IMG/VR virus record: IMGVR_UViG_3300030095_003216
Coordinates: 1 to 30,357 of that record
Length of the DNA: 30,357 nucleotides
Source: a virus
Lineage: Duplodnaviria > Caudoviricetes
Strand: one strand, 5' to 3'
Shown in pieces: positions 1,249-27,792 of the stretch. The notes beneath the pieces are model-generated. The model searched no databases. It saw only the letters and a list, made by a program, of their open reading frames with translations, and was not told the DNA's origin. Numbering within the stretch: position 1 is the first letter of the stretch; each line of letters opens with the position of its first letter. Position numbers and translations under genes: made by a program.

Positions 1249-1267
1249 ATAATAATAGGGAGGTAAT

Positions 1268-1480
1268 ATGTCAGACGAAGCAACAACAGTATGGATAGAA
1301 AGTGTAATAGAAGTACTTGAAGACATGTGTACGGATATCAAAGTTTTCCGTGCTGCTCTTGAAGGCTACGACAAATATACTTTAGTAGACAAGTTCGGTG
1401 GATACCCGCCACACTATGTCGCTGAAGTACTACTAGAATCTTTACATGAGAAACATGTACAGAAGGAATTAGACAGTTAG
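1268..1480 (+). CDS. hypothetical protein
   Basis: ORF track, with strong SD GGGAGGT. Confidence 0.8.
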   Translation: MSDEATTVWIESVIEVLEDMCTDIKVFRAALEGYDKYTLVDKFGGYPPHYVAEVLLESLHEKHVQKELDS

Positions 1481-1494
1481 GGTACAATACCCGA
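1478..1494. repeat. 17-bp palindromic motif copy (TAGGGTACAATACCCGA)
   Basis: 2 mismatches to TCGGGTACNGTACCCGA. Overlaps the TAG stop at 1478-1480 and runs into SD GAGGAGG. Confidence 0.8.
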
Positions 1495-1504
1495 GGAGGT
1501 TATT

Positions 1505-1780
1505 ATGCTGTTAGAAGATATTAAGATTAAGTACAAACCAGATGAGATGTGGGTTGAGTTACACCAAGAAACACATAAAGTAAAAGTGTTTGCGGATACT
1601 GCCACAGAAGGCGAAGAGTTATTGTACACACATGACTTTGGTACTATGAAGGTGGCTAAGGCTATAGCCAGAAGTATAGGTGTACCTGTGGTTAAGTTTA
1701 TTAGAACACAGGTTACATATTACAATGTAGATGGTAGCAAACGAGGCTACGGTAAGGAGAAACACATTGGGGTATTATAA
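1505..1780 (+). CDS. hypothetical protein
   Basis: ORF track, with SD GAGGAGGT. Confidence 0.8.
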   Translation: MLLEDIKIKYKPDEMWVELHQETHKVKVFADTATEGEELLYTHDFGTMKVAKAIARSIGVPVVKFIRTQVTYYNVDGSKRGYGKEKHIGVL

Positions 1781-1985
1781 AGAGAAACAAGTTAATTATG
1801 AAGAGACTGCTAGGCTACGAGCTGAGGCAGAGAAAGAGAAACAAGAGAGTATTACTATACTTGCTTGTACTAACACCGCTGTAGACATACTGTCACATGG
1901 CTTGAACATTGCGGATGTAGAAAACTTAACAGAAAGGTTACTTATGCATAGAGATAAGTTATTGTATGGTGACCAAAATGACTAG
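1767..1985 (+). CDS. hypothetical protein
   Basis: ORF-track frame 1731..1985. TTG 1767 preceded by AAGGAG is the likelier start. Confidence 0.6.
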   Translation: MGYYKEKQVNYEETARLRAEAEKEKQESITILACTNTAVDILSHGLNIADVENLTERLLMHRDKLLYGDQND

Positions 1986-2059
1986 ATTAATACCAGCCAA
2001 ATACAAAAGTTATATAAGCCCGTGGCAAATAAGAGAATGGGTAGGGAGTAAAAGGATAC

Positions 2060-3106
2060 ATGGAAAACTCGGTATTGAATCTAATGGCATTTCTACTAAA
2101 GAAAGACAGAAGAGTAGCATTAAAACACCAACTAAAAAAGGTAAAGCTAGACGTACCGTTTGATGATTTACTTGAAGAGTTATTTCTGTGTGACACTGAC
2201 TTAACTAAGAATGATTTTATCAATGTAGTTAAAGACAAGTTAAACTCTACACAGTTTAATTTTGTACGAGGAATGCCCGAGTCTGTTACAAGTGCTGTTG
2301 GCTTCCGTTCACTGAAACACTTACGTAGTGTAACACAGTTGGGCGAGGTAGCTGACATACTAAAAGGCAGACTAAAACCCGAGACTAAGTTATCTAAGAT
2401 ACAACGAGCCTCTGATTCGCACAAGTTTGTATCTGTAGCTCAGTCAAAATTGATTAGTAAATTTACGTGTGACAAGTCAAGCGACATCTTTAAGTTGTTT
2501 TACTATGGTCTATGTAAAGAGGAGTTAGCAGTATTGTGTGCTTTTAGTGGTAGAGGTAAAACCACCGTGCTGCTATCTCTGTTACGGGATGCTATTCAAT
2601 TAAAACTCAAGACATTATTTGTGTCTATCCAGGATTTTTCTGAGAGTATGCTTAAAGAAAGACTGGATGGGGCAGATGAGTTCCCAGATTTTTATGCCGT
2701 GTGTTCTGCATCATTTGGAATACCAGAGCTAGAGGTTGAGGTAGATGCCTTGAGACCAGACATTGTTTTTCTAGATTATCTAAGTGTAATGAGTACACCG
2801 CAGATAAAAGAGAAACGATTTCAATTAGAGTATGTGTCTGAGAACTTGAAGAAGTTAGCACAAGAGAAGAACATACTTATAATTACTGCCCATCAATTAA
2901 ATGCTGATGTGGATTTACCAACTGAACGTGAGTTGCTTGAGGCTAAGGCAGGTCTATTAGCACACACTGATTTAGTATTAGGTATAGGCGGTGACATGTA
3001 TGACACCGTACGTAACATAACTACCATCAAATCTAGAAGAGCTGCACCTGTGGATGTGTTCAAGATAGATATTGATTTTGCTAACTTAAAAACATTTATG
3101 TATTAG
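2060..3106 (+). CDS. DnaB-like (SF4) replicative helicase
   Basis: Walker A AFSGRGKTT, Walker B IVFLDYL, the motif LKKLAQEKNILIITAHQLN, and the arginine-finger region IKSRR. Confidence 0.85.
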   Translation: MENSVLNLMAFLLKKDRRVALKHQLKKVKLDVPFDDLLEELFLCDTDLTKNDFINVVKDKLNSTQFNFVRGMPESVTSAVGFRSLKHLRSVTQLGEVADILKGRLKPETKLSKIQRASDSHKFVSVAQSKLISKFTCDKSSDIFKLFYYGLCKEELAVLCAFSGRGKTTVLLSLLRDAIQLKLKTLFVSIQDFSESMLKERLDGADEFPDFYAVCSASFGIPELEVEVDALRPDIVFLDYLSVMSTPQIKEKRFQLEYVSENLKKLAQEKNILIITAHQLNADVDLPTERELLEAKAGLLAHTDLVLGIGGDMYDTVRNITTIKSRRAAPVDVFKIDIDFANLKTFMY

Positions 3107-3120
3107 GGTATTGAACCCGA
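3104..3120. repeat. 17-bp palindromic motif copy (TAGGGTATTGAACCCGA)
   Basis: 3 mismatches to consensus. Overlaps the helicase TAG stop and runs into SD GAGGAGG. Confidence 0.75.
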
Positions 3121-3129
3121 GGAGGAACT

Positions 3130-3309
3130 ATGAAATACACTGTAACTTTAACAGATAGAAGGTACTACGAGGTTGAGATTGAAGCTGAGAATGATGACAT
3201 GGCACATAAGAGAGCTGATGAAATTGACTGGGATTTTTTAATAGCTGAAGGTGCTGATGGTGATTTATATTCTGATGGATTAGAAGTTGAGTCTGTCGAG
3301 GAGGCGTAA
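3130..3309 (+). CDS. small acidic protein, DpnD/PcfM-like (59 aa)
   Basis: Translated by hand: MKYTVTLTDRRYYEVEIEAENDDMAHKRADEIDWDF...EEA. SD GAGGAGG, TAATG overlap with the next gene. The KY.V......VEIEAE....A pattern resembles DpnD/PcfM. Confidence 0.75.
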   Translation: MKYTVTLTDRRYYEVEIEAENDDMAHKRADEIDWDFLIAEGADGDLYSDGLEVESVEEA

Positions 3310-3884
3310 TGGGAGAGCCATTAGAGTATTCAACTATTATAAATACATGCCCATTGAATCAACGTGGAACTTTAGCTAAACACATGTTAGCTTACGAAGT
3401 ATTACAAATACCTGGTTGGGACATAGCATTTCCAGATAATCCTATATCACATATAGATGCTATAGTGTTTAACCAGGATTTTGTGTACAAGTTTCAAGTC
3501 AAACATGTCCACCCTATTTGGAGACAAAGTAAACAATCTAGAAAATATACTGTACCTTTACGTAACCATGTAAAGTACAAGTATAGAAAAGACCAGACAC
3601 TTAAGGACAGAAGTAAAGCGTACAAGTACTTTAACCATGGTATAGATTGTGTGTATGCCTATGATTCTACAGCGGGGTGGATGACTAAAGGCGGTATGTT
3701 TGTGTGGAGTACAACACCACATAAAAGAGACTTGTCTGTGTATACTGTGTCAATTGACCAACCACGTAACAATTCAACCAAGCGGGTATATGTACCCGAA
3801 TTACAGAATTTTAATGCAACACAACGACAGCATGAACATAAAAGATATGCTAGAAATTTAAGACTAGGAACAGGTAATGGGTAA
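3309..3884 (+). CDS. PD-(D/E)XK endonuclease (PDDEXK_5 / homing-endonuclease-like)
   Basis: RGTLAK...IAFPDNPISHIDAIV...KFQVK catalytic pattern and downstream Y....IDCVYAYD. Confidence 0.65.
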   Translation: MGEPLEYSTIINTCPLNQRGTLAKHMLAYEVLQIPGWDIAFPDNPISHIDAIVFNQDFVYKFQVKHVHPIWRQSKQSRKYTVPLRNHVKYKYRKDQTLKDRSKAYKYFNHGIDCVYAYDSTAGWMTKGGMFVWSTTPHKRDLSVYTVSIDQPRNNSTKRVYVPELQNFNATQRQHEHKRYARNLRLGTGNG

Positions 3885-4617
3885 AGTAGTAGCAATAACA
3901 AAATGTCCATACCACGATGACAGTAGTCCGTCTTTGGCTATATATCCAGATGGCTATTATTGTTTTGGTTGTAAGAAATCAGGTAAGTTAGAGCCGTGGA
4001 TGACTGACCTTGTAACTAAGGAAGACTCACGTCCTAAATACAAAACAGAATTAAACAGGGATAAATTTAACATAGACTACAATAACAATGTAAAAAGTTT
4101 CTTTGAGGAACGTGGTATTTCAATCAAACTAGCACAGCTGTACGGCATCACGGCTAATAGTACACAATTGTGTATCCCTGCCTATGATTTTGATGGGAGT
4201 GTACATGGACATCAGATACGTAATCTTTTTTCTGGTCCTAAGTATAAGTCTATACCATACAAAGAAAAGTATGCACGGTACAGTTGGATTGATATGCAAG
4301 TTGTGTCGGACATGCCTATCAAAGGACAACCTGTTTGTATTATAGTTGAGTCTGTGGTTGATGCATTATGTGTGGCTAAGCTAGGTCTACCTGCAATGGC
4401 ATTACTAGGTACAAATATGCCTACAGAAATCATACCATTTTTTAGTGATTACAAAGTGCTTGTATTATTTGACCCTGATGCTACAGTTATCAGTTCATAT
4501 TTGCAAGACGTAATAGGTGCATACGGCATAGATACTAGGTCGGTACCATTAATAAGAAAACCTTACGAGATAGACCCCTTACACTTATACAAAGGCATAC
4601 TCGAGGCAGCAAAATGA
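3877..4617 (+). CDS. DNA primase (CHC2 zinc finger + TOPRIM)
   Basis: CPYHDDSSPS...YYCFGC zinc finger; TOPRIM motifs IVESVVDAL, ALLGT and LFDPD. Confidence 0.9.
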   Translation: MGKVVAITKCPYHDDSSPSLAIYPDGYYCFGCKKSGKLEPWMTDLVTKEDSRPKYKTELNRDKFNIDYNNNVKSFFEERGISIKLAQLYGITANSTQLCIPAYDFDGSVHGHQIRNLFSGPKYKSIPYKEKYARYSWIDMQVVSDMPIKGQPVCIIVESVVDALCVAKLGLPAMALLGTNMPTEIIPFFSDYKVLVLFDPDATVISSYLQDVIGAYGIDTRSVPLIRKPYEIDPLHLYKGILEAAK

Positions 4618-4802
4618 GAGGAGATATTATGACATACTATATAGAGAAATGTACTAAAGAAATTATGACAGGACTAGAGTTAGATAAACGCCCCGATACG
4701 GATACGTTAGCAACTAAGTTGGTTATACAAAGGATACTACACAGGAACATAGACGAACTATTCAAAGTATTATTGGAGTCACAAAAAAAGAATGAAGTAT
4801 AA
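4614..4802 (+). CDS. hypothetical protein
   Basis: ORF track; fills the primase-polymerase gap. Alternative start at ATG 4629 after GAGGAG. Confidence 0.6.
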   Translation: MRGDIMTYYIEKCTKEIMTGLELDKRPDTDTLATKLVIQRILHRNIDELFKVLLESQKKNEV

Positions 4803-6852
4803 AGTACGAAGTGGTACAAGTAAAAAGATTGTGTTAGTTATCATAGATAAACCTGCTAAGTCTTATGAAGCAAATCCTCATAAAACAAAGATAGGTGATG
4901 ACTTACTCAGTATATGCAATGTGTACTTACCTAAGTTAGAGGTACGTTGTTTGTCGGCTGTACCTGTGTGGGTAGAGAAGATAAGTATAAAACAAATACG
5001 AGAACACACTGCTTCTTTTTGGAAAGAATTAGATGAGATAAAACCTACTGTTATTATATCAATGGGTAGTGACAGCCACCGTGCTCTCGCAGAAATCTCG
5101 GTTACAGTACCCGTATTCGAATGCGGTAGTATCCATGATTACTCTGAAAAGAAAATAAGTTTTACTAACGTACATCAGACTTTTACCAGAGCTTATCACA
5201 CACTAAAAGGTACCTTGTTAAAAGTACCTATGACTACAAATCTAAGTAGGATAGTGTTGATGTCTTCAAAGTATAAAGAGTTAGCAGTAGATTTTGAATG
5301 GAACCCAGTCACAGGTATACCACATTCAGTGGGCTTAGCGGCAGGACATGTGGCTGGTGGTTTCTTGTTAGATAACCGAGTCAAGGATGTATTACAAAAA
5401 GCTTTTCAAGACAGGACTATGACTATAGTAGGACACAATATTACTGCTGATTGTAGAAAGATGATTAAGTACATAGGTAACAATATTAAATGTAAATTTA
5501 TAGACACGTTAATATTAAAACGAGAGTTAGATTACAACCATAAACAAAATGGATTAAAACATTTAGCTGACAGATACCTGTTACTAGAGCCATACTGGGA
5601 TGGTATAACAGTAGATGACTTTCATAAACCTAGTCCTAAATTACTTAAGTATACTGCGGGAGATGCCTGGGCTACATTATTGTTATGGAGTAAATTTTAT
5701 GAAGACCATACAGATAAGTGGGAGCATATGAATGTGTCCCGGGAAATAGATATGGAGATGATACTCCCTGTGTCGTACATGATAGAAGGCGGTATAAAAC
5801 TAGACTTAGATAAACTTAATAAACAACGTAAGATACTGAAAGCAAAAGAGATAGAGTTGCTGTCACACTTTGAAACCAAGTATAAATTAAATCCATCTAG
5901 CCCATTGCAAGTATTAACTGAGTTACAAAAGAAACATAAAGTTAAATCATCCGGGGTTGAGGTACTAACTAAACTCAATACAGACTTTGGTAACAGGGTG
6001 TTAGAGTATAGGAAAGTAAAGAAGCTACTTACAACGTACATAGATAAGATACCAGAGATGTCAGATGAGAATAACATTATACATTGTGACCTACATTTGG
6101 GCGGTACTGTGACAGGTAGGATGTCGAGTAGTAAACCTAACATGCAGAATATACCCCCCTCTGTACGTGAGATATTTAAGAGTGTGTTTGACGATGATGG
6201 TGTATTGATTACTGTTGATGCAAGTCAGAGTGAGTTGAGATGTCTAGCATATCTAAGTGGCAGTCCGTACTTAATTGAGTCATATAACAATGGTATAGAC
6301 ATGCATACACTTGTGTCTGACTTAGCACAGATTGATAGAAAGAATGCAAAGGTGCTAAACTTTGCTTATGTATATGGTTCATCAGAGGGTGGACTCATAG
6401 CACAGCTTATCATGTCGGGTGTACCCAAGAGAGAAGCCGGTAGTGTTGTTAAAAAGTTTATGAACACCATGGCTAAGCTTGGTATCAACAAGTACCAACG
6501 AGAGCTACTGGATAAAGCTAAAAAATTAGGGTATACTTATTCCCCATATGGTAGAGTTGGTACAAGATTGAACCCTACTCAAGTTGTTAATTTTCCTATT
6601 CAATCTTTTAGTGCCGATTTAAACAAGGAACGTATAATATATATGTTTAACAAGTTTAAAGAGAACAAACTGGTATCACGTATCTGGATGGAATTCCATG
6701 ATGCAATGGAACTGGATGTATATAAGCCAGAACTAGATACCGTAAGAGAATTATTAGATACGATAGATACTCGTATCCCTGATGTCTTGGGTAAAGGCAT
6801 AAATTTAACACTTCCGTTAGACGTGAAAGAACACGGACCTAATTGGAAATAG
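4792..6852 (+). CDS. polA: family A DNA polymerase with 3'-5' exonuclease and degenerate UDG-like N-terminal domain
   Basis: Exonuclease motifs AVDFE, GHNITAD, IDTL and YTAGDA. Polymerase motifs TGRMSSSKPNMQNIP, DASQSELR (A), RKNAKVLNFAYVYG (B, Phe at the E. coli 762-equivalent), NFPIQS and FHDA (C). Confidence 0.95.
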   Translation: MKYKVRSGTSKKIVLVIIDKPAKSYEANPHKTKIGDDLLSICNVYLPKLEVRCLSAVPVWVEKISIKQIREHTASFWKELDEIKPTVIISMGSDSHRALAEISVTVPVFECGSIHDYSEKKISFTNVHQTFTRAYHTLKGTLLKVPMTTNLSRIVLMSSKYKELAVDFEWNPVTGIPHSVGLAAGHVAGGFLLDNRVKDVLQKAFQDRTMTIVGHNITADCRKMIKYIGNNIKCKFIDTLILKRELDYNHKQNGLKHLADRYLLLEPYWDGITVDDFHKPSPKLLKYTAGDAWATLLLWSKFYEDHTDKWEHMNVSREIDMEMILPVSYMIEGGIKLDLDKLNKQRKILKAKEIELLSHFETKYKLNPSSPLQVLTELQKKHKVKSSGVEVLTKLNTDFGNRVLEYRKVKKLLTTYIDKIPEMSDENNIIHCDLHLGGTVTGRMSSSKPNMQNIPPSVREIFKSVFDDDGVLITVDASQSELRCLAYLSGSPYLIESYNNGIDMHTLVSDLAQIDRKNAKVLNFAYVYGSSEGGLIAQLIMSGVPKREAGSVVKKFMNTMAKLGINKYQRELLDKAKKLGYTYSPYGRVGTRLNPTQVVNFPIQSFSADLNKERIIYMFNKFKENKLVSRIWMEFHDAMELDVYKPELDTVRELLDTIDTRIPDVLGKGINLTLPLDVKEHGPNWK
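5098..5114. repeat. 17-bp palindromic motif copy (TCGGTTACAGTACCCGT)
   Basis: 2 mismatches to consensus, inside the polymerase gene. Confidence 0.75.
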
Positions 6853-6861
6853 GAGGTTACT

Positions 6862-7161
6862 ATGGGAGAATCGTATGGTTCACCAAGAGCATCACGTACA
6901 GGAGGTAGAACTTCTGGTGGTGCAGCAGCTTATAAAAACAATGGTAACTCAGATAAGAAATCTGATTTAGTTAACATTGGTGGTGGCTGGAAGAAAGACT
7001 GGGGTTATTCCTGTGTACTACAGATTGGCAATCGTAAGTACAAAGCATTAGCTTTCTGGAATAAATTTAGGGATGGCAATAACCCGCCTGACTTATCATT
7101 CAGTCTAAGAGCTGACGAAGTAGATGGCGAAGAATCTGAGCCCTACAAACCAAAAGGTTAA
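6862..7161 (+). CDS. putative single-stranded DNA-binding protein (DUF736-like)
   Basis: NIGGGWKK...AFWNKFRDGNNPPDL pattern, acidic tail, position between polymerase and exonuclease, SD AGGAGGT. Confidence 0.5.
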   Translation: MGESYGSPRASRTGGRTSGGAAAYKNNGNSDKKSDLVNIGGGWKKDWGYSCVLQIGNRKYKALAFWNKFRDGNNPPDLSFSLRADEVDGEESEPYKPKG

Positions 7162-7170
7162 GGAGAGAGC

Positions 7171-7995
7171 ATGGGTATTACGGTAAAAAAGATGGTGTCA
7201 GACCCTGGTGAGTTTATTAACGCACTAGAAGATAGCACTGAAATTGTATTGGATGAAGAGTTTGACGCTAGATTTGAAGAGTGGAAAGCTAGAGGTGAGG
7301 GTAAGGACCACATGGTTCGTTCCTCTAGTCTTGGTCAATGTATTAGACAGGCTTACTACTCTTACTTATCTGACGTACCTAGAAGTCCGGTTAGTGACCC
7401 ACTAGCCAGACGTAGAATGTTTCAAGGTTTTGTTAATGAGAATACTATGGGTAGGATTATTGACAAGATGCCTGGAAAAACACATGGGTTGGATAGTATT
7501 GAGCAAAATCAATTTCCAATCCATGTAGAAATGGATGCAGATAAACCAATAGGTTTTGCAGCCACAACTGATTTTGTAAAAGAGTTTGAAGATAAAGATG
7601 GTAATAAGTATTTGATTCCTATGGAACTTAAATCCACAGATATATACAAGTGGAAAGATTTTACTTATTGGAAATACCACTTAAAACAAATATTGTTATG
7701 GGTATACATAGCAAAGCAACTCGGGTACAGAATACCCTATGCTTTGTTACTATATACCAGACGTAGTACGATGGAATATAAGTATTGTATGATTGCAGTA
7801 GATACACCTTACGCAAGAATGGACAGGGTTGTAGAAAATTGGGACCATTGGCAGCCCTATATTCACGACCTCGTGAGTACATTAAGAAGCTCCTCGCAGA
7901 GTAGAACTTTACCGGCTCTACCAACCGATGTGCCTAAATACATCTGTAACTCCTGTCCCCATCGTAACATTTGTGCGGAGAATGGTACATACTAA
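7171..7995 (+). CDS. Cas4-like / PD-(D/E)XK exonuclease with probable Fe-S cysteines
   Basis: SSLGQCIRQAYY, TTD...ELKST, HLKQILLW and C-terminal ICNSCPHRNIC. Confidence 0.85.
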   Translation: MGITVKKMVSDPGEFINALEDSTEIVLDEEFDARFEEWKARGEGKDHMVRSSSLGQCIRQAYYSYLSDVPRSPVSDPLARRRMFQGFVNENTMGRIIDKMPGKTHGLDSIEQNQFPIHVEMDADKPIGFAATTDFVKEFEDKDGNKYLIPMELKSTDIYKWKDFTYWKYHLKQILLWVYIAKQLGYRIPYALLLYTRRSTMEYKYCMIAVDTPYARMDRVVENWDHWQPYIHDLVSTLRSSSQSRTLPALPTDVPKYICNSCPHRNICAENGTY

Positions 7996-8369
7996 TGGTT
8001 AAACGAAACTACAGATACCAAGCAGGGTATAGATTTGAGAAACGTGTGCATAAACATTTAGCAGAACTTCTTGATAAGATGCCCGAAATAAAGTATTACA
8101 TTATTGAGTCACGAGGTAGTAAAGGTAAAGCAGATTTAGTCGTAGGTCTATTTAATTCCTTAGATGGAAGCAGGTTTTGGTTTGGTGTGCAATGTAAGAA
8201 AGGGTACATCAGTAAACCCGAGATACGTAGGGGTGCATACCTAGGAATGAAAGAACACGGTATGTTTCTTTACCATGCTACCTTAGATAAAGATAAGAAG
8301 ATAGTAATAACACCAGAGCTTGGTAATTTTACTGCATCAGATATAGGAGGCTTTGAAGGAACTGAATAG
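7995..8369 (+). CDS. Holliday-junction resolvase, Hjc-like
   Basis: GYRFEKRV...SRGSKGKADLVV...VQCK. Start set at ATG 7995 because of the TAATG overlap. Confidence 0.75.
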   Translation: MVKRNYRYQAGYRFEKRVHKHLAELLDKMPEIKYYIIESRGSKGKADLVVGLFNSLDGSRFWFGVQCKKGYISKPEIRRGAYLGMKEHGMFLYHATLDKDKKIVITPELGNFTASDIGGFEGTE

Positions 8370-8898
8370 AATATATCTACAGATACTACAACGTCTTGGT
8401 ATTATCTGTCTTATGCAAAAAGACAAATTAGGTACAGGCTTATTCTTACCTAGTATGTTACAAGATAGTAGACTCACACACTTCTCTAAGTTGTTGTCTT
8501 TAGTAAATGCAAACTGGAACTCGTTAAATTTGTTTCGATTTTTACCAGATGATACAGACCAACTAATGTTTCTTGAGTGGTGTAATGAGAATCGAATAGA
8601 ATATCTACAAAAAGAAACATACTTACAACTGTCATACAAAATGACAGGACAATTAGCTCCCATAATTGAACTGCCTAGTATTGGGGTTACGGAAACAATG
8701 ACAAAGACTAGGATATATTACAATTTAATACCAGATATAGTGATGTCTGTACTACAACAAGTTAGTATGGAGAAAGTTTTTCCAACAAAGTTTCATATGT
8801 TTGTATGCACACCTGTATGGGAACAAGTACATGAAGCTATGGAAGAGGCACATACGTGGTATAGATTTGATGGAGGCTCGGATGATAACAGTAGTTAG
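8353..8898 (+). CDS. hypothetical protein
   Basis: ORF track; TTG start after AGGAGG. Confidence 0.75.
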   Translation: MKELNRIYLQILQRLGIICLMQKDKLGTGLFLPSMLQDSRLTHFSKLLSLVNANWNSLNLFRFLPDDTDQLMFLEWCNENRIEYLQKETYLQLSYKMTGQLAPIIELPSIGVTETMTKTRIYYNLIPDIVMSVLQQVSMEKVFPTKFHMFVCTPVWEQVHEAMEEAHTWYRFDGGSDDNSS

Positions 8899-9689: not shown

Positions 9690-9690
9690 A

Positions 9691-13971: not shown

Positions 13972-13972
13972 A

Positions 13973-14164: not shown

Positions 14165-14181
14165 AATAACCTCCTTGTCGT

Positions 14182-20100: not shown

Positions 20101-20991
20101 ATTTGGATGTTGTTTGTTTGTATTTCCGATTAATTTATTTTTTCCGTATTTATAGGCAGTCTTGAATCCTGGAATTAATATATGATTAAATGCTAGAGGA
20201 TAACCTCCTGCATAAAGAACACCATCAATCCATGAGTGATTAAGTGATTTCCATATTCCTGTTTCTAATCCAAAAGCTAGTGCTGTATCTACCGCAGCTT
20301 GTTGCGAACCTAGAGTCTTAGCCGTTGCATCAGATAAACCTTTTAGTCCTGGTACATTTCTTACTTTATTTAATTTGGAAGCTACATTTGCTACAGGTGT
20401 AGTTGCACTAATTAAATTTCGAGCTACTAACGCACCGGCTACCTTACCACTTCCAGCTTTTGACATACGCCATACGCCATAGAACTGTGTAAGTTCTCCC
20501 ATTGCATAAGCTGTAGTTTCCAAAGCACTTTCAACAGAATTGTAAGTGCCCATTTCTTTTCTGTAACGGTCTCGTATTTCTTTATCCGGTATCTGATTAG
20601 TAGTAAGACCTTGAAATAAACCAGAATAAAGTGATTGAAGCATTGTTGGGTCATAGTTTGTTGATTGGTCCATGTTTGGAAAGGCTGAATCTAACCAACG
20701 AGTCAATTGTTGTTTGTTAGTCCAATCACTACTTACAACATAATTTCGAAACTTACCAAGTAATGAGCCTTCTATTTTATTCGTGTTTACAGCTAAGTCA
20801 TCATCTGTATCATCTTCAGTTTGCGGAAATATTATTTCAGGATTACCAGAGGTATTACCATAAATACCTTTGTCTGTACTGTTAATCAGATGATTGTCTA
20901 ATAAATTACCATAGTCTTTACCGGGTGCAGTACCCGAAGACTCTTGTTTAAGTTTGTCCTGTTGTAATTGTTTTAATAAAAGCCTACTCAT
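14182..20991 (-). CDS. very large internal virion / DNA ejection protein (T7 gp16-position analogue)
   Basis: 2269 aa, predominantly helical, last of three ejection-type genes. Contains KTNHLYNSAN...LKAYNLYKKF followed by a hydrophobic Gly/Ala segment, as I recall from podovirus ejection proteins. Confidence 0.7.
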   Translation of the reverse strand: MSRLLLKQLQQDKLKQESSGTAPGKDYGNLLDNHLINSTDKGIYGNTSGNPEIIFPQTEDDTDDDLAVNTNKIEGSLLGKFRNYVVSSDWTNKQQLTRWLDSAFPNMDQSTNYDPTMLQSLYSGLFQGLTTNQIPDKEIRDRYRKEMGTYNSVESALETTAYAMGELTQFYGVWRMSKAGSGKVAGALVARNLISATTPVANVASKLNKVRNVPGLKGLSDATAKTLGSQQAAVDTALAFGLETGIWKSLNHSWIDGVLYAGGYPLAFNHILIPGFKTAYKYGKNKLIGNTNKQHPNIPGTTKDGSIVSPDGNPLEINGKPLNLKTISEMMNASEKELEKLRFAAGGDEATVAFLDKIKQLKTENKGVFNEINMLIEKVEQGVVQATNVYLKKISAIINNHDIPLPKNAKISTINGIENTTNRLNKKIEKEHKARASTVFEQSLDEFDNIINEFVNPLLMSFNKGGFQYSPETIEALHKTIINELDSAYYNGDKLIRDLFTAGGTTGSPTGQSSLISMFKTALNKKIQNKKKLGMGETRLKEWNSAVGVSANKTDAENLAILEKRWDDYFSGVKKTRGFTKEKVEQFATREKEINNARVNLKEIVEEKKSLAFETQFKEPHYRYQKHAKLRVSPFFQTAIIPEETYYFLIRTLGLTNKNLKFREGDDLLTDINYLIQEKGLNSAANKLKRDFRLLTAVKDYARTFGLNKNDKLINVIKRTESKLMRKTTEKHAAPTGKDIALPLNYREIKELTRDLLYILEHPLVTAMSKGNKNVGKFMSKKLYNNGAKTTRNTKILQGQKALTGKHGNNGKATQGNLKEIAEEFIDNIKSRALLAHYGLDPTDLSPGNFKRLAKKEKAMQKAQEKLVDQFYKLGTPGARNTVANSMKRLQELFGELKTNSVKRMGNRLDVIDNMLQLNKGIKMISEFNSTNKLLEGQLGIETFADDLASMIKQVKSIKKGTKLQDYQLMKAYQKFVGNYIKTSNNTHPVVQDIEEVITTLMQSTRLSANALQRTQPSLFKALQSMVEDDLPRFMAKLKKRMNKPGKTNEEFASVYTPMTERIEQLLKKKTQKGKQEAEILLAQEIIRDRRLQEFLIPTNSNFSNLLLVYRAMGQKELRGVLKEVMLQNQTQSQILNVINQTNKIQNPIFSNKPVPELNPELGNVYVPGFLKKHVYDYFLKGQNKIFQDSGTDYMVALNKSVSDALQFLQRLTSKGGPLDTDLNGYQTFVKDKLKALEERIGSKVIGDKSLIGFVDDAIVGLDKLETNAMRKGIEKNEDYLATKQKFLDALPKEVQEILTEFYDLTWKYAAQYNRMIDDIQAQVAKGTVFDDIGEQIPWREGMAGLQKIERRDNYFPRIFNLNNQETYTLMFSIKDKTGKLLPAQKVPIRYLDKSNEVHSLENLHYSMSLHVEKMKLKKGEDIVYTFRPNGRPIDRVDATGQPEVSSRLRLLLDDTDQLTAMNHSQVKKLLNEGNFDFKTFYHNAFVAGPSMSKPRLGLRPDYEQNHVTALGIYMNRLARHIAMIKPTAESDSVIAHLRKQPELAKDGIQDASAYISTVTTQIDDALGRPSPTIKMLNKAINELATRARKIQGINELKEPLDFRKVVNFNNTMNYYTQFGINPMAALIQTSMAVTSVGPAAGGKYLMNHFTKHNGQNFRRDVGDYITMNNPAAQTGELKAITAQKRKRFNSFPKKYRDEIEDMAQLYEENNLNLDSGHALLLADTHVSDVGREAKSWLGKKGEQYAAIGDWATTLFRQGDIIPRKLALRIAYLASDEVFTNVITKLNKLNLNWQKETYNSTKIISMIKQERGMSQLNPLEEAAMELIVNSAARKYTKSGRGKYFTKTGKGNTYTYQVNRDFKKDLATRFQEKTNHLYNSANNTGFMNNQTLKAYNLYKKFAVKEFERMTGLVQKGQYEAAVGSIAGYGAIAGGLGIPFARDILNFYSWLYKTSMIEGGIVPDLGSGLPVPELLDPEYALRSSGDSWFEKLALTGVASIAGLDLSQAGAVNMSSHFDPRGTGFLKSTSGAADLAMNVVMGDTYIKISKLMRAFNWGGTSADSQQIISNAGDKAYVDGEHDYALRVLESISSFIPGADRMMKLFTVPAGVAPLDYRGRPSNVYNEVFKSGETDSYMDMLPAGIFKALGGKSVDESMYEMSKSGRRRSELTEAVAGRQQRAMKDIVRLQVKIQRAKAIGDKDTVQGLTMDIKHIAQEYEITNKMIENFVIKHGMGKVTKTPRNAAERLMLQQDLDTATIDPNTGKYVPMRDR
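15107..15123. repeat. 17-bp palindromic motif copy (TCGGGTACAATACCCCC)
   Basis: 3 mismatches to consensus, intragenic. Confidence 0.7.
20921..20937. repeat. 17-bp palindromic motif copy (CCGGGTGCAGTACCCGA)
   Basis: 2 mismatches to consensus, near the 5' end of the 2269-aa gene. Confidence 0.8.
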
Positions 20992-21003
20992 CCTATCTCC
21001 TGT

Positions 21004-23139
21004 TTACGTGTATGATATCTCACTCAAAATGTCTTGTTCGTATTTTGGGTCTATACCGTTTTCTTGTAAAAATGATTGTAAATATGTGCCTGGGTTTATA
21101 CCTAAAGCTGACAGTTGTGGAAGTTGTGCAGATATTACTGTCGCTATTGTTGTCACATCAGTTGCTGTTAACTCATCTGTTACATCAGTGTCTAAGTCTG
21201 GTTCATCGGGTGTTTCTGCTGTAGCAAACTCTAGTCCTGTAGTATCTCCAATCCCCATAACCATACCACCTGTAGTGTCAGTCTTTCCTAATGCTTCATA
21301 TAATTTAATTAAAGCATCTGTATTACTACTTCCTGGGTGTACTTTTTTAATTAGTTCTTTTTTATCCGCAGAACTTAAACCTACTAATTCAGTAGCTATA
21401 ATCTTAGAAGCATCTTCATCAGAAGAATAATAAGACTTAGCTGTATTATTAGCGTATAAATTAATTGAATCTGTATTTATTGTAGTAGTTTGATTTATTC
21501 TTTTATCTTTAATTTGATTTCTTAAAGCTAGAAACGGTGCAATTTTTTCGTATAATTCACCTTCTATTGTTTTCTTTATTTTTTCATTTCTCGATGTTGT
21601 TCTTTCAAATTTTTCCCCTTCTATTTTCGGTATGTTTGATTTAGCTAATGCTGCTTCACTAGAAATTACACCAATAAAATTGTTAATTTGCAGTATGTCA
21701 CCTGTAAGTAATACTTCTTCAAAAGCTTCTGATAAATTAAATCCTAATTTTTCATTAAGAAAATCTAAGTCATAAGTACTTACAATACCATTGAAAGTAG
21801 CTGAAGCGTTATCAAAATAACCGTATTTATCAGTTGCTAATACTTCATTTGAAAAATCTAATTTTTCTTTATTTTTTAAGTCTGCTGCTGATTTAGCTGT
21901 TGCAACATACTCTCCCATTTCTAGATTAAGATTACGTACATATTGTTCAAAGGTTAAATCTGCTGTACCGTCAATTTCCATTTCTTCTTTGTATTTCTCA
22001 TATCCTTGTACCTGCATTTGGGCTCTTACTGATGCATCTTTATCCAGTAATGTTTCTGCTGAAGCCATTAAAAAATTTTCTGTATCAGCTACTCCTAACA
22101 GTTTACTATTAACTCCGCCATCAGATGTAAGAATCTCATTTTTCATAAAATCAACAAGCATATTTATACCTTCAAGTCTAGTTATTTGACCTTGGTTTAT
22201 TTGATGATTAATTATACTAAGTTGACCTCGAGTTATATTTTCAAACTTATAACCTTTGAAAACTTCCTCATCGTCAAATGCTAATTCTCCTGTAGGTTGA
22301 CCTTTGAAATCTTTTTCATCTACAGTTTCAATTTCAGTTTTACCTATGGATATAGGAATATCTGCGTAGCTTAAGTTTTCTGGAATTCTAAATATAGGTT
22401 TGCCATCTTCATCTCTAATTATTGTTCCCGTACCTGTTTCACCCGATGAAAATATTGTGTAGTTTAAGGCACTTCTTGGTTTAACAAATCTGTCTTTACC
22501 CCTTATTGAAAATCCTCCGGCACCATCTGGAGGTGTAACATCATAATGTTTCTTTTCAAATTTATCATTGTTTTTATTGTATTGTGTTTTTGCATTATTA
22601 ACATCTGTTGTAGTTTGGTCAGACGGTTGAGCCCCATCATGTAATGCTATAAGTTCTCCTATTTGGTTAGTTCTCTCTATATCAGTTAAGGCAGCATTGT
22701 CTTGAATTGCTTTAATTTGAGGACCAAACACAGGGTCATTTGCAACGCTGTCGATACGTTTAGCAATATAAGCTTTCTTAGCATTTATCTGACTTGTAAG
22801 TGCATCTACTGAGCTTATACCTTTTTCTATAGCAAGTTTTGCAGTTGGGTCATCAACACCTTCATTAATTCCTTCAGCTATACCTACACCTGGATTAGTC
22901 ATTGTTGTTACGTCAGCCCCATAAATACCAGAACCACCTTTACTTTCAGCCCCTGTATTTAAGATGTCATAATTTTCATCAGCTCGTGCTACACCAATAC
23001 CAGTTCCGGAAGTTTTATCTTTGAGTCTTTCTAGCTCACCTCTAGCCATTTCAGATACTGCACGTTGCGATTTCTCTTTGTCAGATGGAAAGTTTACGCT
23101 TATCCCGCCTATATTAAAATTTTTTAATTTTATGCCCAT
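21004..23139 (-). CDS. putative internal virion / ejection protein
   Basis: 711-aa ORF with SD AGGAG; function inferred from synteny only. Confidence 0.6.
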   Translation of the reverse strand: MGIKLKNFNIGGISVNFPSDKEKSQRAVSEMARGELERLKDKTSGTGIGVARADENYDILNTGAESKGGSGIYGADVTTMTNPGVGIAEGINEGVDDPTAKLAIEKGISSVDALTSQINAKKAYIAKRIDSVANDPVFGPQIKAIQDNAALTDIERTNQIGELIALHDGAQPSDQTTTDVNNAKTQYNKNNDKFEKKHYDVTPPDGAGGFSIRGKDRFVKPRSALNYTIFSSGETGTGTIIRDEDGKPIFRIPENLSYADIPISIGKTEIETVDEKDFKGQPTGELAFDDEEVFKGYKFENITRGQLSIINHQINQGQITRLEGINMLVDFMKNEILTSDGGVNSKLLGVADTENFLMASAETLLDKDASVRAQMQVQGYEKYKEEMEIDGTADLTFEQYVRNLNLEMGEYVATAKSAADLKNKEKLDFSNEVLATDKYGYFDNASATFNGIVSTYDLDFLNEKLGFNLSEAFEEVLLTGDILQINNFIGVISSEAALAKSNIPKIEGEKFERTTSRNEKIKKTIEGELYEKIAPFLALRNQIKDKRINQTTTINTDSINLYANNTAKSYYSSDEDASKIIATELVGLSSADKKELIKKVHPGSSNTDALIKLYEALGKTDTTGGMVMGIGDTTGLEFATAETPDEPDLDTDVTDELTATDVTTIATVISAQLPQLSALGINPGTYLQSFLQENGIDPKYEQDILSEISYT

Positions 23140-23151
23140 AGTATTATCTCC

Positions 23152-24423
23152 TTAACCACCTATGCCAATACCAAGCTGAATTGGTTGTAGATTAAATGAG
23201 CTACTTCTAGCTGATGATGTTCCATAAGAACTTCCTGGTCCAGCTGTAGCCATGTTACCCATAAATGTGTAAATAAATTGTTGTGTTCTTTCTTTGTTTT
23301 GTTCGACTTGTCTTTGTTCATCGACTGCTATACCAAACAGTTGCATCTGTTGTTGGTTCATTGCTAACTGCATTTGAGTATGTGCATTTATTTTGCTTAA
23401 TTGTTTTGCCGATTCAAGTTCTAACATTTTAATATTCTTAGATAAAGTTAAACTTTGTTGTTGCTCTCCTCGTTGTAATAAATCTGATAGTAATGAAACA
23501 CCAGTTTGTCTAGCCTGGTACAAAGTACCTAGGGCTTGAACTCTTGCTTGAGCTAGTTGAGCATTTGTATTCTTAGCTATATCTAGAACTCCATCTTTAA
23601 TTGCATTTAGTGCAGCACCTGAAGTAGCTATACCTTGAGCAGCAAAATCTCCAAGAGTTGCTTTTAATAAATCTTCCCCTTGGGTTGCAGCTGTTTCATA
23701 TATAGCAGTAGATAATTTATCTAACTCAGCTTCCATACCTGCGTCTGTACTATCGTCAAAAATATTTATCATAAATGAAGTCATTGCATTTGGTAATCCT
23801 TCAAATATTTCTGTCACTTCATCTTGTAATGGAGTTGGGTCTGGTAATGTCATTGCACCGTCTGCTCCAGACATTCTATATATTTCTGACATTTGTTCTG
23901 AACTTGCCGCAACTGGGTCTTGCACCATGTTAATTACATTTGAAGTAAGTTGTCTAGTTTCTTCTGGTAGTTCTCCTGCTTCATACTTTGCAAAGAAGTC
24001 CTTATACTTAGCATCATCAAAACTAGGTAAGATAGATTCTGCTTGGTCTCTTAACTCTTGTTCAGCAGATTCCACTCCAGTAGATAGCTCTTGGTTAGCT
24101 CTTACTCCACGGTCTAATCTAGGGTCTTGACTACTTGCTATAGGACCTGGTGAACCTGGTAATGCAGATTTTCTTGGAGTTGTTAACGTATCAAGATAAT
24201 CTTTAGTACTATCATAACCTTGTGCTACACCATAACCAACTTTTCCCCCATCGGGTCTACGCAGTGCACCTTCTCGTGTACCACTTCTATCAGTTATAAA
24301 TCCTCCTGTATTTGTACTTCCCGGAAAGAAAGCCTCTTGTATCATATTAGAGTAAAATGATTGTTGTGAACTTGGTCCACTAACTGACATTTGTCTACTC
24401 CTTGATTTACTTTTACCACCCAT
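23152..24423 (-). CDS. putative internal virion / ejection (pilot-like) protein
   Basis: MGGKSKSRSRQ N-terminus, Gln/Ala-rich helices, Gly/Ser-rich end; follows the GNAT-like gene. Confidence 0.65.
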   Translation of the reverse strand: MGGKSKSRSRQMSVSGPSSQQSFYSNMIQEAFFPGSTNTGGFITDRSGTREGALRRPDGGKVGYGVAQGYDSTKDYLDTLTTPRKSALPGSPGPIASSQDPRLDRGVRANQELSTGVESAEQELRDQAESILPSFDDAKYKDFFAKYEAGELPEETRQLTSNVINMVQDPVAASSEQMSEIYRMSGADGAMTLPDPTPLQDEVTEIFEGLPNAMTSFMINIFDDSTDAGMEAELDKLSTAIYETAATQGEDLLKATLGDFAAQGIATSGAALNAIKDGVLDIAKNTNAQLAQARVQALGTLYQARQTGVSLLSDLLQRGEQQQSLTLSKNIKMLELESAKQLSKINAHTQMQLAMNQQQMQLFGIAVDEQRQVEQNKERTQQFIYTFMGNMATAGPGSSYGTSSARSSSFNLQPIQLGIGIGG

Positions 24424-24823
24424 AATGTTCTCCTACTTCATCTGCATTTATTTCATATATAAATACTGACGGTTTTTTATTAAATAATTTTTCTATTAAT
24501 CGTTTTGTTCTTCGTGTTCCTTGTATCTCAACTTTTCTAGAACTAAATCTTTTACAAAAGTCAGCAATACGTTTTAACCAAAATTTATACCTAGCTCTAT
24601 ATGCTTTATCTATGTATATAAATTCTAGATATAAATGCGGGTTCGTGTACCCGGATGTTACCATCCTGTAACCTATCATCCCAATAGGGTTTGAACCCCA
24701 TCCAAATTCTGTTAGTACATGCCAAGCTAACCCCTGCATAATAATTTCACGAGTCTGCTCTGGCTTTACCTCATCCATGTATTTGTCTATGTAATCTTCA
24801 AAGACATCTACCTGTTCTTGCAT
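24413..24823 (-). CDS. GNAT-fold acetyltransferase-like virion assembly protein
   Basis: IGMIGYR...LYLEFIYIDKAYR...IADFCKR...KVEIQG pattern; position between tail and ejection genes, as for T7 gp13. Confidence 0.6.
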   Translation of the reverse strand: MQEQVDVFEDYIDKYMDEVKPEQTREIIMQGLAWHVLTEFGWGSNPIGMIGYRMVTSGYTNPHLYLEFIYIDKAYRARYKFWLKRIADFCKRFSSRKVEIQGTRRTKRLIEKLFNKKPSVFIYEINADEVGEHYGW

Positions 24824-24978
24824 TCACATTCCTCAGTACAGTTACATTCTAGTAATTTCCTATATGTAACTATAGCTCCTTGTAAATAAGCTACAGAAGC
24901 TTTTGCTTGTTCAAACTGTTTTTCAAGCTCTTCAACCTCTTTTAGCTGTTCTTCTTTTTTATTGCATTCACAATTCAT
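24808..24978 (-). CDS. small coiled-coil protein with Cys-rich termini (56 aa)
   Basis: Translated by hand: MNCECNKKEEQLKEVEELEKQFEQAKASVAYLQGAIVTYRKLLECNCTEECECKNR. Fills the gap between the flanking genes. Confidence 0.7.
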   Translation of the reverse strand: MNCECNKKEEQLKEVEELEKQFEQAKASVAYLQGAIVTYRKLLECNCTEECECKNR

Positions 24979-24979
24979 G

Positions 24980-26353
24980 TTATACCCTCATCTCTACGGC
25001 AATAGCATTGCCAGTAATTTCTACTGATTTTTTGTTATACCCTATACCACTTGAAATATTGTTGGTAGTAAAATCATTTATTTGCAAAGTGCAGGTATAG
25101 ACTGTATTTGCAGCACTACCAAGACTACCATTAGGACTTACATCAATTGCCGCCAATGAATGACCGAATTGATTAATAATACTGTTATTATTTGAAGCAG
25201 TACTACTTCCGCCCCGTAACACTCCTTGAGCTAATACAGTAGACCCTTTTTTTATTTTAAGTGTTGCATCAAAATTTAGTATTTGCATAGTTATACCTGT
25301 TTCATTAGGTACATCTTTTGCTAAAACTATTGGATTAAAAAATATTAAAATATCACGCCCAATACTACTTACTGTTAACTCAGCTACAGTATTCTCACTT
25401 GAAGTAACAGTAGCACCTTGTTTAAATCCTGTTGCAGTGGGATGGTCACCACCCACTAAAGCAAACTCACCCGATTCATTTGAAGCCAAATCCGGAGTAG
25501 CTACAGTTTGAGTTGTAACAGCTCCTTCAGTAATATTACCTGTAGTTACAAGACTTCCCGTAATTGCCAAAGTTGAGTTATCCCAGTAAATATTGTTTCC
25601 ACCAGAAGGACCAAACCTAAATTTGCCATCGTTGTCAATGTCAATAGTTTGAGTTCCATCTGCCTTAAAGCAATCTAAGCCTGTAGATGTAAACTGTATC
25701 CTTGCCCCACTAGCTGCCGTTCTAAATATATTACCTGTCATTGTAGTTCCTGTGATAGTAGCTCCGTCAATACTTCCTGCTGTAATACTACCCAGGTTAG
25801 CTGTAATAGCTGACAAAGTTGTTGCTGATATCTCATCTGCTGTTACCGAGTTTGCTGCTAGTTCAGTTGCTGTTATAGTTCCTGCTGCAATTTGAGTTGC
25901 TGTTATTGAGTCCGCAGATATAATACCGCCATCTATAAACACACTACTACCTGTTTGAAACTTCACTGTACCACTTGCATCCATAACTTGTATACCGTAG
26001 TTATTAGTACCACTGCCTAACTTACCAAGTTTAACCCTAGTTTGTACAGGGTCCTGTGAATCTTTTATTTCTATTGTATTACTTGGACCATTTAATGCTA
26101 TTTTACTTTCAGCTCCAACATATACGTTATTTGTAAACTGTGTGTTAGATGAAATTTTTTCTGCTGATAAATCAAATATCTGTTCATTGCCTACTAAGAA
26201 TTCTGATTGTACTGCTAGTATAAAATCTAGTAATGCAGAATGCTGTGATTTTAAGAATGTAGGTAATTTAGTATCTACATACTCTAAGTATTCTCCAGCT
26301 TTGAATACAGGCGGACTAGGTAAAGCTACATCATCAAACTTACTGTAAGCCAC
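24980..26353 (-). CDS. tail fibre / spike protein
   Basis: RVKLGKL motif, about 10-aa repeats (ADSITATQIA AGTITATELA ANSVTADEIS), RTAASGARI and a beta-rich C-terminus. Confidence 0.7.
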   Translation of the reverse strand: MAYSKFDDVALPSPPVFKAGEYLEYVDTKLPTFLKSQHSALLDFILAVQSEFLVGNEQIFDLSAEKISSNTQFTNNVYVGAESKIALNGPSNTIEIKDSQDPVQTRVKLGKLGSGTNNYGIQVMDASGTVKFQTGSSVFIDGGIISADSITATQIAAGTITATELAANSVTADEISATTLSAITANLGSITAGSIDGATITGTTMTGNIFRTAASGARIQFTSTGLDCFKADGTQTIDIDNDGKFRFGPSGGNNIYWDNSTLAITGSLVTTGNITEGAVTTQTVATPDLASNESGEFALVGGDHPTATGFKQGATVTSSENTVAELTVSSIGRDILIFFNPIVLAKDVPNETGITMQILNFDATLKIKKGSTVLAQGVLRGGSSTASNNNSIINQFGHSLAAIDVSPNGSLGSAANTVYTCTLQINDFTTNNISSGIGYNKKSVEITGNAIAVEMRV

Positions 26354-27792
26354 TAACTATCTCCTCCTGATTCTACATCACAGACAAACTCTGATACACT
26401 TGTAAAGTTTGTAGCTTTAATTGTTATGTATCTACCAAATTCATTGAAGTCTGCTCTAGGTGCTTTACCATCGGTATCTGTAATTGTTTCGTTTGTATAT
26501 GTAGGACTGTCACTTCCTAAGTCTGCTACACCTACTGATATAGTTGTACTGGCAGGTGTTGCATCAGTTTGTACTCGAGTTACTTGTACATAGTCTGTAG
26601 GTTGCGTACCTTCTGTTGGAGGTAAATCGTAGTTACCATGATATGCTCTAGTTGCTAAAGTACTTGCAATAGCTGCACTTATATCTGTTCCAGATGTATC
26701 TCTTTGATGTACTCGACCACTTGCTGCTCCGTAGTAAACCTCGGGTACTGTAACCGTACGGTATTTGTAAAAACCAGAGAAAGCGGATTGAGTAGATTTA
26801 CTCCACACATTATATTGATAATTCCATATTAATACTGCATTAGGTATCTCACTACTACCTGTTGGATAATGTATATTTACTTCTCTGTTTTTATGGTCTG
26901 TCCAACAATACACATTGTTTTTCCATGTAAAATTTAAGTTTGCAAACATATCATTAACAACTGTGTTATCACCTACTGGTTCTACTGCCGAGCCGTTAAA
27001 TAAATATATACCATCATTACTTACAAATAAATGCGAGTTCGGTACATCTGTTACTGCTTTAGGTCCTATAATACCAATTTGTTGTCTAGCTTTTGGTACA
27101 AAGAATAACGGACTGCCTTGGTCTTGTAATGTTACTACACTATCTGATTTATATACTGCTATCATATTATGACCTAATCTTCTGGCTGATATAATAGGAG
27201 CCATAGAATAATCTAAGTCTACAAAGTTTGTATTAGATATTCTGTCATAATCTAAGGAATCCGTGTACAGTACCCGATAAGGTACGGCACCGTCAGTACC
27301 ATCAGTTACATTAAAAAATAATAATCTAGAATTAAATGCTATAATATTTTTTGCTAAAGTAAGGTTTCTACCACTGCTACTTGTATCCCACGATACCGCA
27401 GTAAAGTTACCTGTAGTAGATACTGCAGGTGCATTCTTACCATCTACTCTATAAATAGAATTATTTATTTCTGCAAAGAATACTTTATCACTAGTTGCTC
27501 TAGTAACGCCTTCTGTTATTAAACTTGTATATGCACTACCGTTCCAGCTATATATTCTAGCCTCAGTAGCAACTAACTGTCTTGCAGCCCCGTCATGTCT
27601 TAATTGGTCTGTTACTTCTATTACATCAGATGTTTCTGTTGTTGCAGCAAGTTGGGCATAACCATCTCGTTTAGTCCATTTACCATTCCTGTATACACAA
27701 TCTGTAGCAACTGATAACTGGTTCTCACCTATTAAATGTGATGGTACAGATAAATTTAACCCACCTGATAAATCTTTTATAAACCGTTTCAT
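26353..27792 (-). CDS. tail nozzle / stabilisation protein (tubular protein B / P22 gp10-like beta-propeller)
   Basis: DLSGGLN...KRDG start, DGKNAP, FVSNDGIYLFNG and WNYQYNVWS; beta-rich, in the expected syntenic position. Confidence 0.75.
   Translation of the reverse strand: MKRFIKDLSGGLNLSVPSHLIGENQLSVATDCVYRNGKWTKRDGYAQLAATTETSDVIEVTDQLRHDGAARQLVATEARIYSWNGSAYTSLITEGVTRATSDKVFFAEINNSIYRVDGKNAPAVSTTGNFTAVSWDTSSSGRNLTLAKNIIAFNSRLLFFNVTDGTDGAVPYRVLYTDSLDYDRISNTNFVDLDYSMAPIISARRLGHNMIAVYKSDSVVTLQDQGSPLFFVPKARQQIGIIGPKAVTDVPNSHLFVSNDGIYLFNGSAVEPVGDNTVVNDMFANLNFTWKNNVYCWTDHKNREVNIHYPTGSSEIPNAVLIWNYQYNVWSKSTQSAFSGFYKYRTVTVPEVYYGAASGRVHQRDTSGTDISAAIASTLATRAYHGNYDLPPTEGTQPTDYVQVTRVQTDATPASTTISVGVADLGSDSPTYTNETITDTDGKAPRADFNEFGRYITIKATNFTSVSEFVCDVESGGDS
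26741..26757. repeat. 17-bp palindromic motif copy (TCGGGTACTGTAACCGT)
   Basis: 2 mismatches to consensus. Its inner 15 bp are the exact reverse complement of 5099-5113. Confidence 0.8.
27261..27277. repeat. 17-bp palindromic motif copy (CCGTGTACAGTACCCGA)
   Basis: 2 mismatches to consensus, intragenic. Confidence 0.75.

Follow-up and report, generated by a model that had tools for sequence, protein, structure and literature searches.

A dispersed palindrome with a variable centre in a group of podovirus-like phages and a candidate phage-encoded reader

In Cluster O mycobacteriophages a 17-bp dyad is repeated more than 30 times, reportedly with no known reader or function (PMC4351075). We analysed a comparable array in IMG/VR virus record IMGVR_UViG_3300030095_003216, taken whole at 30,357 bp and hereafter called the window, a fragment of a genome that is podovirus-like in gene content. 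As in Cluster O, a dispersed 17-bp palindrome occurs together with the lack of a detected integrase or parAB, is denser at one end of the genome, lies in coding sequence at some copies (about a third of those in Cluster O), is associated with recombination between copies and invites the proposal of a dimeric binder (PMC4351075). The array is thus less unprecedented than a reading of the sequence alone (the sequence-only reading) had held. The Cluster O word is a different one, with invariant 7-bp arms and a fixed 3-bp centre (PMC4351075), whereas the arms here are degenerate and the centre measures 1-3 bp; in addition, sister clades re-spell the word and the gene in one slot tracks it. What is new here is the variable spacer, the turnover of sites within genes and a named candidate reader, a basic 288-aa orphan encoded beside the early promoter.

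Three better understood systems share other features with this locus. The stoperators of Cluster A phages (L5 and the TipsytheTRex repressor) are more than 20 genome-wide sites for one phage protein, found across the genome and at promoters, with a specificity that diverges between relatives, and the repressor is proposed to block both initiation and elongation (PMC9283540). Those sites are 13 bp long, asymmetric and oriented, and are bound by a monomer in temperate phages (PMC9283540); the sites here are dyads with polarity at position 7 alone, the candidate is predicted to be a dimer and no integrase turned up. Coliphage 186 offers a parallel to the putative promoter arrangement, since pR and pL are convergent, one of them points toward the regulator gene, and distal operators a few hundred base pairs away act via loops (PMC3675496). 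Its CI protein, however, is a helix-turn-helix (HTH) protein forming a 14-mer, CI operators cover pR and few sites are described (PMC3675496), whereas here the early promoter is free of sites, the array is genome-wide and clade C lacks the facing promoter. In plasmid RK2, KorB likewise acts at a distance from dispersed OB operators and has its DNA-binding part mounted on a dimeric scaffold. This protein is a ParB-family CTPase clamp (PMC11790492), and the candidate has no ParB match. A literature search found nothing relevant on this word or arrangement; subscription journals and RegPrecise/CollecTF lay outside that search.

The sequence-only reading had listed ten copies of the palindrome with one to three mismatches each, and all ten are present. 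A hundred dinucleotide shuffles yielded a mean of 0.02 copies (maximum 1), and the matches are separated from background by a clear step, with ten sites at three mismatches or fewer, none at four and three at five. The exact GGGT-N5-ACCC core occurs six times against 0.2 expected. The count also exceeds that of 1000 per-gene synonymous-codon shuffles at three mismatches or fewer (mean 2.38, maximum 5), and about 2 of this mean are the two gene-boundary copies, which synonymous shuffling leaves untouched. The codons said to be rare are so in their families (TCG 5%, CGG 3%, CTC 2%, ACG 6%, CCC 10%, GGG 10%). The eight coding copies encode eight different peptides as claimed, but they fall in six genes, and six of the eight share one frame. 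The two non-coding copies (1478 and 3104) each start within the TAG stop codon of the gene before them and lead directly into a GGAGG ribosome site.

The count of ten assumed a fixed centre and proved too low, the variable spacer having been overlooked. When centres of 0 to 6 bp between 8-bp arms were allowed, 0, 10, 3, 1, 0, 0 and 0 sites were found, respectively, against at most 0.1 per spacer in 20 shuffles; the sites starting at 260, 3782, 7721 and 24637 were added, giving 14 in the window. Contig G001, 99.9% identical to the window over 16.8 kb, provides the parts absent from it (tail-fibre start, capsid, portal, terminase and early region). Together they make up, by coordinate arithmetic, a circle of about 43.4 kb, with a second overlap of 457 bp containing 12 differences, so that about 13 kb of the genome falls outside the window. 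A rightward and a leftward arm converge near position 9400. The full map holds 23 sites, 14 of them in the early arm of about 11.6 kb (seven in its first 1.9 kb) and nine in the remainder. Lone half-sites are not enriched (10 versus 8.8 expected), and the dyad is therefore the unit. The centre varies even at corresponding sites: the site at 1478 has a 1-bp centre in the window and a 2-bp centre in G002, with the extra base also present in contigs of two other runs; in clade B the site after the helicase gene has 2 bp, compared with 1 bp in clade A; and the site preceding the candidate gene has 1, 2 or 3 bp across records. Most dimeric regulators need fixed spacing, and it would be unusual for a dimer to accept a spacer of 1-3 bp at the very same site. 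Two explanations of the word were dropped. GTAC is slightly depleted whether or not a clade has sites, which removed a link to methylation or restriction, and the cyanobacterial LexA box, a dyad whose tetramers are four bases apart, would need a 4-bp spacer that never occurs.

A capsid search returned 51 loci, from which 14 records were rebuilt and compared together with the window (15 records in all). Clade A (G000, G001, G002, G004) uses the word TCGGGTAC-N1-3-GTACCCGA. Clade B (the second half of G005, and G012) uses GGGTAC-N1-3-GTACCC, with 17 and 16 sites and a 2-bp centre as the commonest, and spacers of 4-6 bp never occur in the A and B records. In clade C (G006, G009, G010, G011) the word is GCGGGA-N3-TCCCGC, with six copies in each record, all within ~7.3 kb of the early arm's start. 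No array was found in outgroup D (G003, G007, G008, G013, G014 and the first half of G005); de novo searches for dyads and 11-mers likewise revealed none in G003, G007, G008, G014 and the first half of G005, and gave a GGGGG/CCCCC signal in G013 and L049. Two further loci covering the late arm alone (L026 and L028, capsid 93%) had no A, B or C site in it. In the terminase tree, clades A, B and C fall together on a single branch (100/100, midpoint rooting, 14 rows), and capsids are 88-89% identical between clades with different words. Exact-word scans of viral contigs placed the array in this phage group only; the other exact-word hits, being single copies or 90-bp tandem coding repeats with neither slot protein, were set aside. 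Two features of the records themselves may be mentioned. G005 (83.7 kb) consists of a clade D followed by a clade B genome in tandem and G006 ends in part of a second genome, both probably chimeric assemblies; G007, G008, G013 and G014 have a different early region, with genes resembling by eye a MoxR AAA ATPase and a von Willebrand factor A protein.

Sites turn over within genes while some locations persist. The DNA polymerase A site lies at codon ~105 in clade A, at about the same codon in clade C with the other word and other peptides, and at codon ~140 in clade B; the virion gene 26353-27792 carries sites at codons 175 and 348 in clade A and at codon 430 in clade B. All three clades retain a site before GGAGG and a small acidic gene, the clade C gene being alike by eye only. 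The re-spelling of the word throughout the genome suggests that the reader acts in trans.

Selection acts on the nucleic acid rather than on the encoded peptides, as had been proposed. In four genome pairs, fourfold-degenerate positions of the core arms in genes of at least 55% identity are conserved at 48 of 49 positions, against 3480 of 4780 (73%) outside the arms (p=4e-6), so that the silent arm positions are conserved in relatives. For each of the 12 coding sites, which were picked by their match, random synonymous recoding equals the match with P no higher than 0.003. The two arms do not covary: pairing was not above column shuffles in three site sets (138 versus 140, 110 versus 114 and 98 versus 102), which contain 2, 0 and 0 compensatory changes. 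In clade A, 22 arm positions are mismatched on both strands and the flanks pair at chance level (26/92); some sites fold at just -1 to -2 kcal/mol, and an identical G-to-T change is found on either arm. The missing covariation favours a double-stranded site over a hairpin, and together with the lack of half-site enrichment it fits the duplex dyad expected of a dimeric protein, as the sequence-only reading had suggested.

The same reading had noted no obvious HTH, ribbon-helix-helix or ParB gene in the window. This is true of the window; the best candidate lies in the missing ~13 kb, at G001:10185-11051. The candidate gene is transcribed away from the early operon and has a site 50 bp upstream in G001. 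Its family is small (five representatives in one search, six proteins in another), and the family profile matches four of the 15 records, G001, G002, G005 and G012, which are the GGGTAC-word records covering the slot; G000 and G004 do not cover it. In clade C the slot is occupied by a different, inverted, basic orphan of 187 aa, flanked by clade C sites and found, among the 15 records, only in the four with the GCGGGA word. In all eight records a site lies 44-88 bp upstream of the first ATG of the slot gene, and clade B has an extra one within the gene's 5' end. Nine family members of the two slot proteins have isoelectric points of 9.2-9.9.

The core of the candidate is far better conserved than the remainder of the protein. 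An AlphaFold model contains a helical core at residues 78-202, with a predicted local distance difference test value (pLDDT) of 92, a low-confidence linker at 205-225 and C-terminal helices. The homodimer model scored 0.50 against 0.00 for the best control, with a contact agreement between runs of at least 83% and a pLDDT of at least 76; the mark set for this score was reached by 20 of 30 solved pairs and by 1 of 23 single chains. The best contacts involve residues 235-286, and the long N-terminal helix is also in the interface. Dimerisation of the candidate is thus predicted to run through a C-terminal domain tethered by a flexible linker. Neither the full-length nor the core model gave a clear match in fold searches, the core model reaching at best Z 5.5, to a designed helical protein; this null speaks neither for a new fold nor against an HTH. 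KorB and ParB chains were absent from the fold-search listings, ParB went unmatched in scans of the candidate, and a family-profile search of the sequences of solved structures returned no match. The nearest named Atlas cluster for both slot proteins is DUF3102 (PF11300), at 0.90 (134/256 features) and 0.86 (107), a cluster in which 30% of members carry the family and with which shared-feature counts are low; PF11300 was matched neither in protein scans nor anywhere in five genomes, and the likeness serves as a lead only. A profile comparison of the slot families with a similar-looking clade D protein was not significant. Searching cultured phages with the candidate by tblastn produced weak helicase-loader matches only (E 0.01 or worse), which were rejected.

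The sites near the candidate gene have a conserved geometry. Four of four A and B records covering this region show, in order, a site, a rightward sigma-70-like promoter, a leftward TTGACA-17-TAAACT pointing toward the candidate gene, and a second site. The leftward sequence is identical in all four, and the site lies 8-11 bp from its -35. In the four clade C records the facing promoter-like pair is absent; a site stands ~22 bp before the promoter-like sequence of the slot gene (three of four by script), and two sites bracket the early promoter.

We put at about 0.5 the probability that the palindromes are operator-type duplex sites for a phage-encoded, predicted dimer, most likely the 288-aa orphan, which would regulate its own gene and dampen transcription both in the early region and genome-wide. 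Each helical core would read one GGGTAY half-site, and the flexible linker would let the dimer accept a centre of 1-3 bp; two cores on flexible linkers could explain the stretchable centre. The sites about 80-160 bp on either side of the early promoter may repress it through looping or as roadblocks, and the site 8-11 bp from the opposing promoter may set the level of the reader itself. The other sites might act as roadblocks to host polymerase, either timing the lytic cycle or maintaining a silent carrier state without an integrase. Extended to a new regulator family of unsolved fold, in which a stretchable 1-3 bp dyad, a facing-promoter switch and a roadblock network silence an integrase-less marine podovirus, a swap of reader re-spells the sites and a mobile pseudoknotted RNA is gained and lost, the picture becomes speculative, and we consider it doubtful as a whole. 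If true, such a network would provide a carrier-state mechanism in abundant marine viruses. The candidate is specific, small and expressible, and three natural sets of word and protein make the pairing directly testable.

Several observations weigh against the operator reading. Arm position 7 is A in 23 of 23 upstream arms and in 11 of 23 downstream arms in clade A, an asymmetry not expected of a symmetric dimer; the A-richness of the sense strand may account for it, and position 1 in clade B likewise loses T. No site overlaps the -35 or -10 of the early promoter, the nearest being 78-157 bp off, so that repression would need looping or a roadblock. Promoter-like matches overall are as frequent as in shuffles (16 versus 15.9), and conservation alone therefore supports the promoters. 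In the late genes, which contain nine sites, roadblocks would be a hindrance to lytic growth. The tyrosine integrase family PF00589 was matched in none of five records, four of them at least 90% complete, nor in the window scans, and a silent state is accordingly not evident. The candidate has no match to Pfam or PHROG families of DNA-binding proteins, and hhalign probabilities between the A/B and clade C slot proteins were 0.5% and 0.2%, too low to indicate homology. Gene and word follow the terminase tree; the three clades are not independent cases, and the co-occurrence can reflect shared ancestry. The A+B pattern is also shown by open reading frames (ORFs) 1268-1480, 1505-1780 and 3130-3309, and the A+B+C pattern by the basic ORF 3309-3884.

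A phage-made dimer of the same kind might instead serve a structural function, bridging, compacting or shielding the genome or helping entry, replication or packaging. Such a role would suit the presence of sites on both arms in clades A and B with no clade A gap above 7.1 kb, the many mid-gene sites whose intragenic position can shift, and the long N-terminal helix in the modelled dimer interface. It accords poorly with clade C, whose six sites are confined to one part of the early arm, and with the conserved geometry round promoters and ribosome sites. Even, lattice-like spacing is not seen either: gaps on the full map range from 106 to 7112 bp, 14 of 23 sites fall in the early arm, and they are densest at the early promoter. 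A role in segregation, which the sequence-only reading had listed, found no backing, since Pfam scans for the ParB N-terminal CTPase domain were negative in 36 window ORFs and in 19 further ORFs. We judge the structural reading unlikely.

It is less probable still that the reader is another phage protein. ORF 3309-3884 encodes a basic protein of 191 aa with a nuclease-like motif by eye; it has homologues in A, B and C and none in D, and contains the site at 3782. That intragenic site is missing from the other records, the gene has no upstream site of its own, and its only family match is PHROG 5018, of unknown function. The 161-aa protein encoded beside the terminase gene (G001:8886-9371) has weak HTH matches (E 6e-4), but it is also found in outgroup D, which has no sites, with an unchanged predicted recognition helix, HKTVKNI, and this makes it an unlikely reader.

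To a similarly small degree we credit a host regulator or nucleoid protein for which the sites would be recruitment points or decoys, as the sequence-only reading had also envisaged. Two of the 34 exact matches in GTDB fall in marine Neomarinimicrobiota, and the total of 34 in 596 Gb of genomes compares with ~140 expected from uniform composition. The four genomes checked at up to two mismatches have 1-4 sites against 0-2 for a control. The lack of enrichment in the genomes searched, the change of word between phage clades as close as their capsids indicate and the absence of 4-6 bp spacers in the A and B records speak against a host reader. In Marinobacter persicus (L193, L194) the word was seen in two exact copies and in two with one mismatch, a distance of 1.3 kb separating two of the four.

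The copies are very unlikely to act as hairpins in RNA or single-stranded DNA, for processing, pausing or translation. A variable centre is what loops permit, two of the 14 window sites abut GGAGG, sites flank structured RNA units like array repeats, and position 7 is oriented with transcription. The arms, however, show no covariation and almost no compensatory change, and the two-strand mismatches, chance-level flank pairing, weak folds at some sites and same change on either arm argue likewise; the RNA unit, moreover, occurs without the palindrome in an unrelated phage. Least probable of all are recombination points shuffling early-region cassettes, which the presence of 2, 1 or 0 copies of the RNA unit in close strains with junctions at sites and the exchange between repeats also described for Cluster O (PMC4351075) might suggest, as exchange would be lethal at most sites, which fall within single-copy genes, five records yielded no tyrosine recombinase, and exchange as a by-product of repeated sequence is explanation enough.

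Table 1. Positions of the palindrome sites and arms in the window and of the RNA-like units in other loci.
Feature	Position	Strand	Centre	Context and remarks
Site	260..277		2 bp	3 mismatches; in ORF 181-495; kept in G002; newly found
Site	1478..1494		1 bp	Starts in stop of ORF 1268-1480, followed by GGAGG and ORF 1505-1780
Site	3104..3120		1 bp	Starts in helicase stop, followed by GGAGG and small acidic ORF 3130-3309
Site	3782..3799		2 bp	In ORF 3309-3884; newly found
Site	5098..5114			In DNA polymerase A, codon ~105
Site	7721..7739		3 bp	In Cas4-like exonuclease, codon ~187; common to clade B; newly found
Site	9258..9274			In ORF 8801-9367, final early-arm gene
Site	10262..10278			In ORF 9691-11241 (late arm)
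Site	12159..12175			Close to 3' end of ORF 12104-13621
Site	15107..15123			In 2269-aa protein gene, codon ~1959
Site	20921..20937			Close to 5' end of 2269-aa protein gene, codon ~21
Site	24637..24654		2 bp	In ORF 24413-24823; kept in G004; newly found
Site	26741..26757			In virion structural gene 26353-27792, codon ~348
Site	27261..27277			In virion structural gene 26353-27792, codon ~175
Early/replication arm, window part	181..9367	+		Helicase, primase, Pol A, Cas4-like exonuclease; 7 sites in 9.2 kb
Late/virion arm, window part	9450..30255	-		7 sites in 20.8 kb
RNA-like unit	L009:11444-11530	+
RNA-like unit	L009:11562-11648	+
RNA-like unit	L011:1965-2051	-
RNA-like unit	L089:11719-11813	-
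RNA-like unit	L154:2999-3088	-

The early leader of G001, outside the window, contains three sites that enclose two structured units of ~90 nt (z -5.5). G001 has two copies, G002 and G010 one each, and contigs of three runs none, with the junction at sites; a further copy lies between genes of an unrelated phage, without palindromes. The unit is predicted to fold into an outer stem, inner hairpins and a 5-bp pseudoknot. Of these elements only the pseudoknot and the outer stem are taken into account; both are fully paired in four sequences, with one two-sided change each, and the covariation score was equalled by 33 of 500 shuffles. Rfam gave no credible match, and the unit is a ribozyme or riboswitch candidate. 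Available RNA libraries contain contigs of 85-99% relatives only and are uninformative on transcription or RNA ends.

As to the setting, 17 public runs hold at least half of the words of the early stretch, of which 16 are labelled marine or seawater and one is unlabelled. Searches of cultured relatives with capsid and polymerase found none above 30% identity among the matches listed, and no host can be named. Ahead of the late arm, L009:9697-9726 (minus strand) is a perfect 12/12 sigma-70 consensus; a full site lies ~60 bp upstream of this late-arm promoter-like sequence in clade B and only a half-site in clade A. The adjacent small ORFs heading the late arm, L009:9352-9618 and 8886-9371 (minus strand), have weak matches to sigma-70 region 2 (E 0.12) and to region 4/HTH (E 0.003), and could be a split sigma-like pair or a small terminase. 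DNA contigs of three runs end near a G-rich tract (L001:1537-1874) that separates the candidate gene from the late promoter and is crossed in two runs, which may mark a physical genome end or an assembly artefact. A pyrimidine-dimer glycosylase-like gene (PF03013) at 474-986 on the plus strand is distributed patchily over the clades and does not track the palindrome. Finally, the 505-, 2269- and 711-aa genes at 12104-23139 are 26-36% identical to their counterparts in G004, against 87-100% for adjacent genes, and appear to form a swapped module, in two genes of which G004 retains sites.

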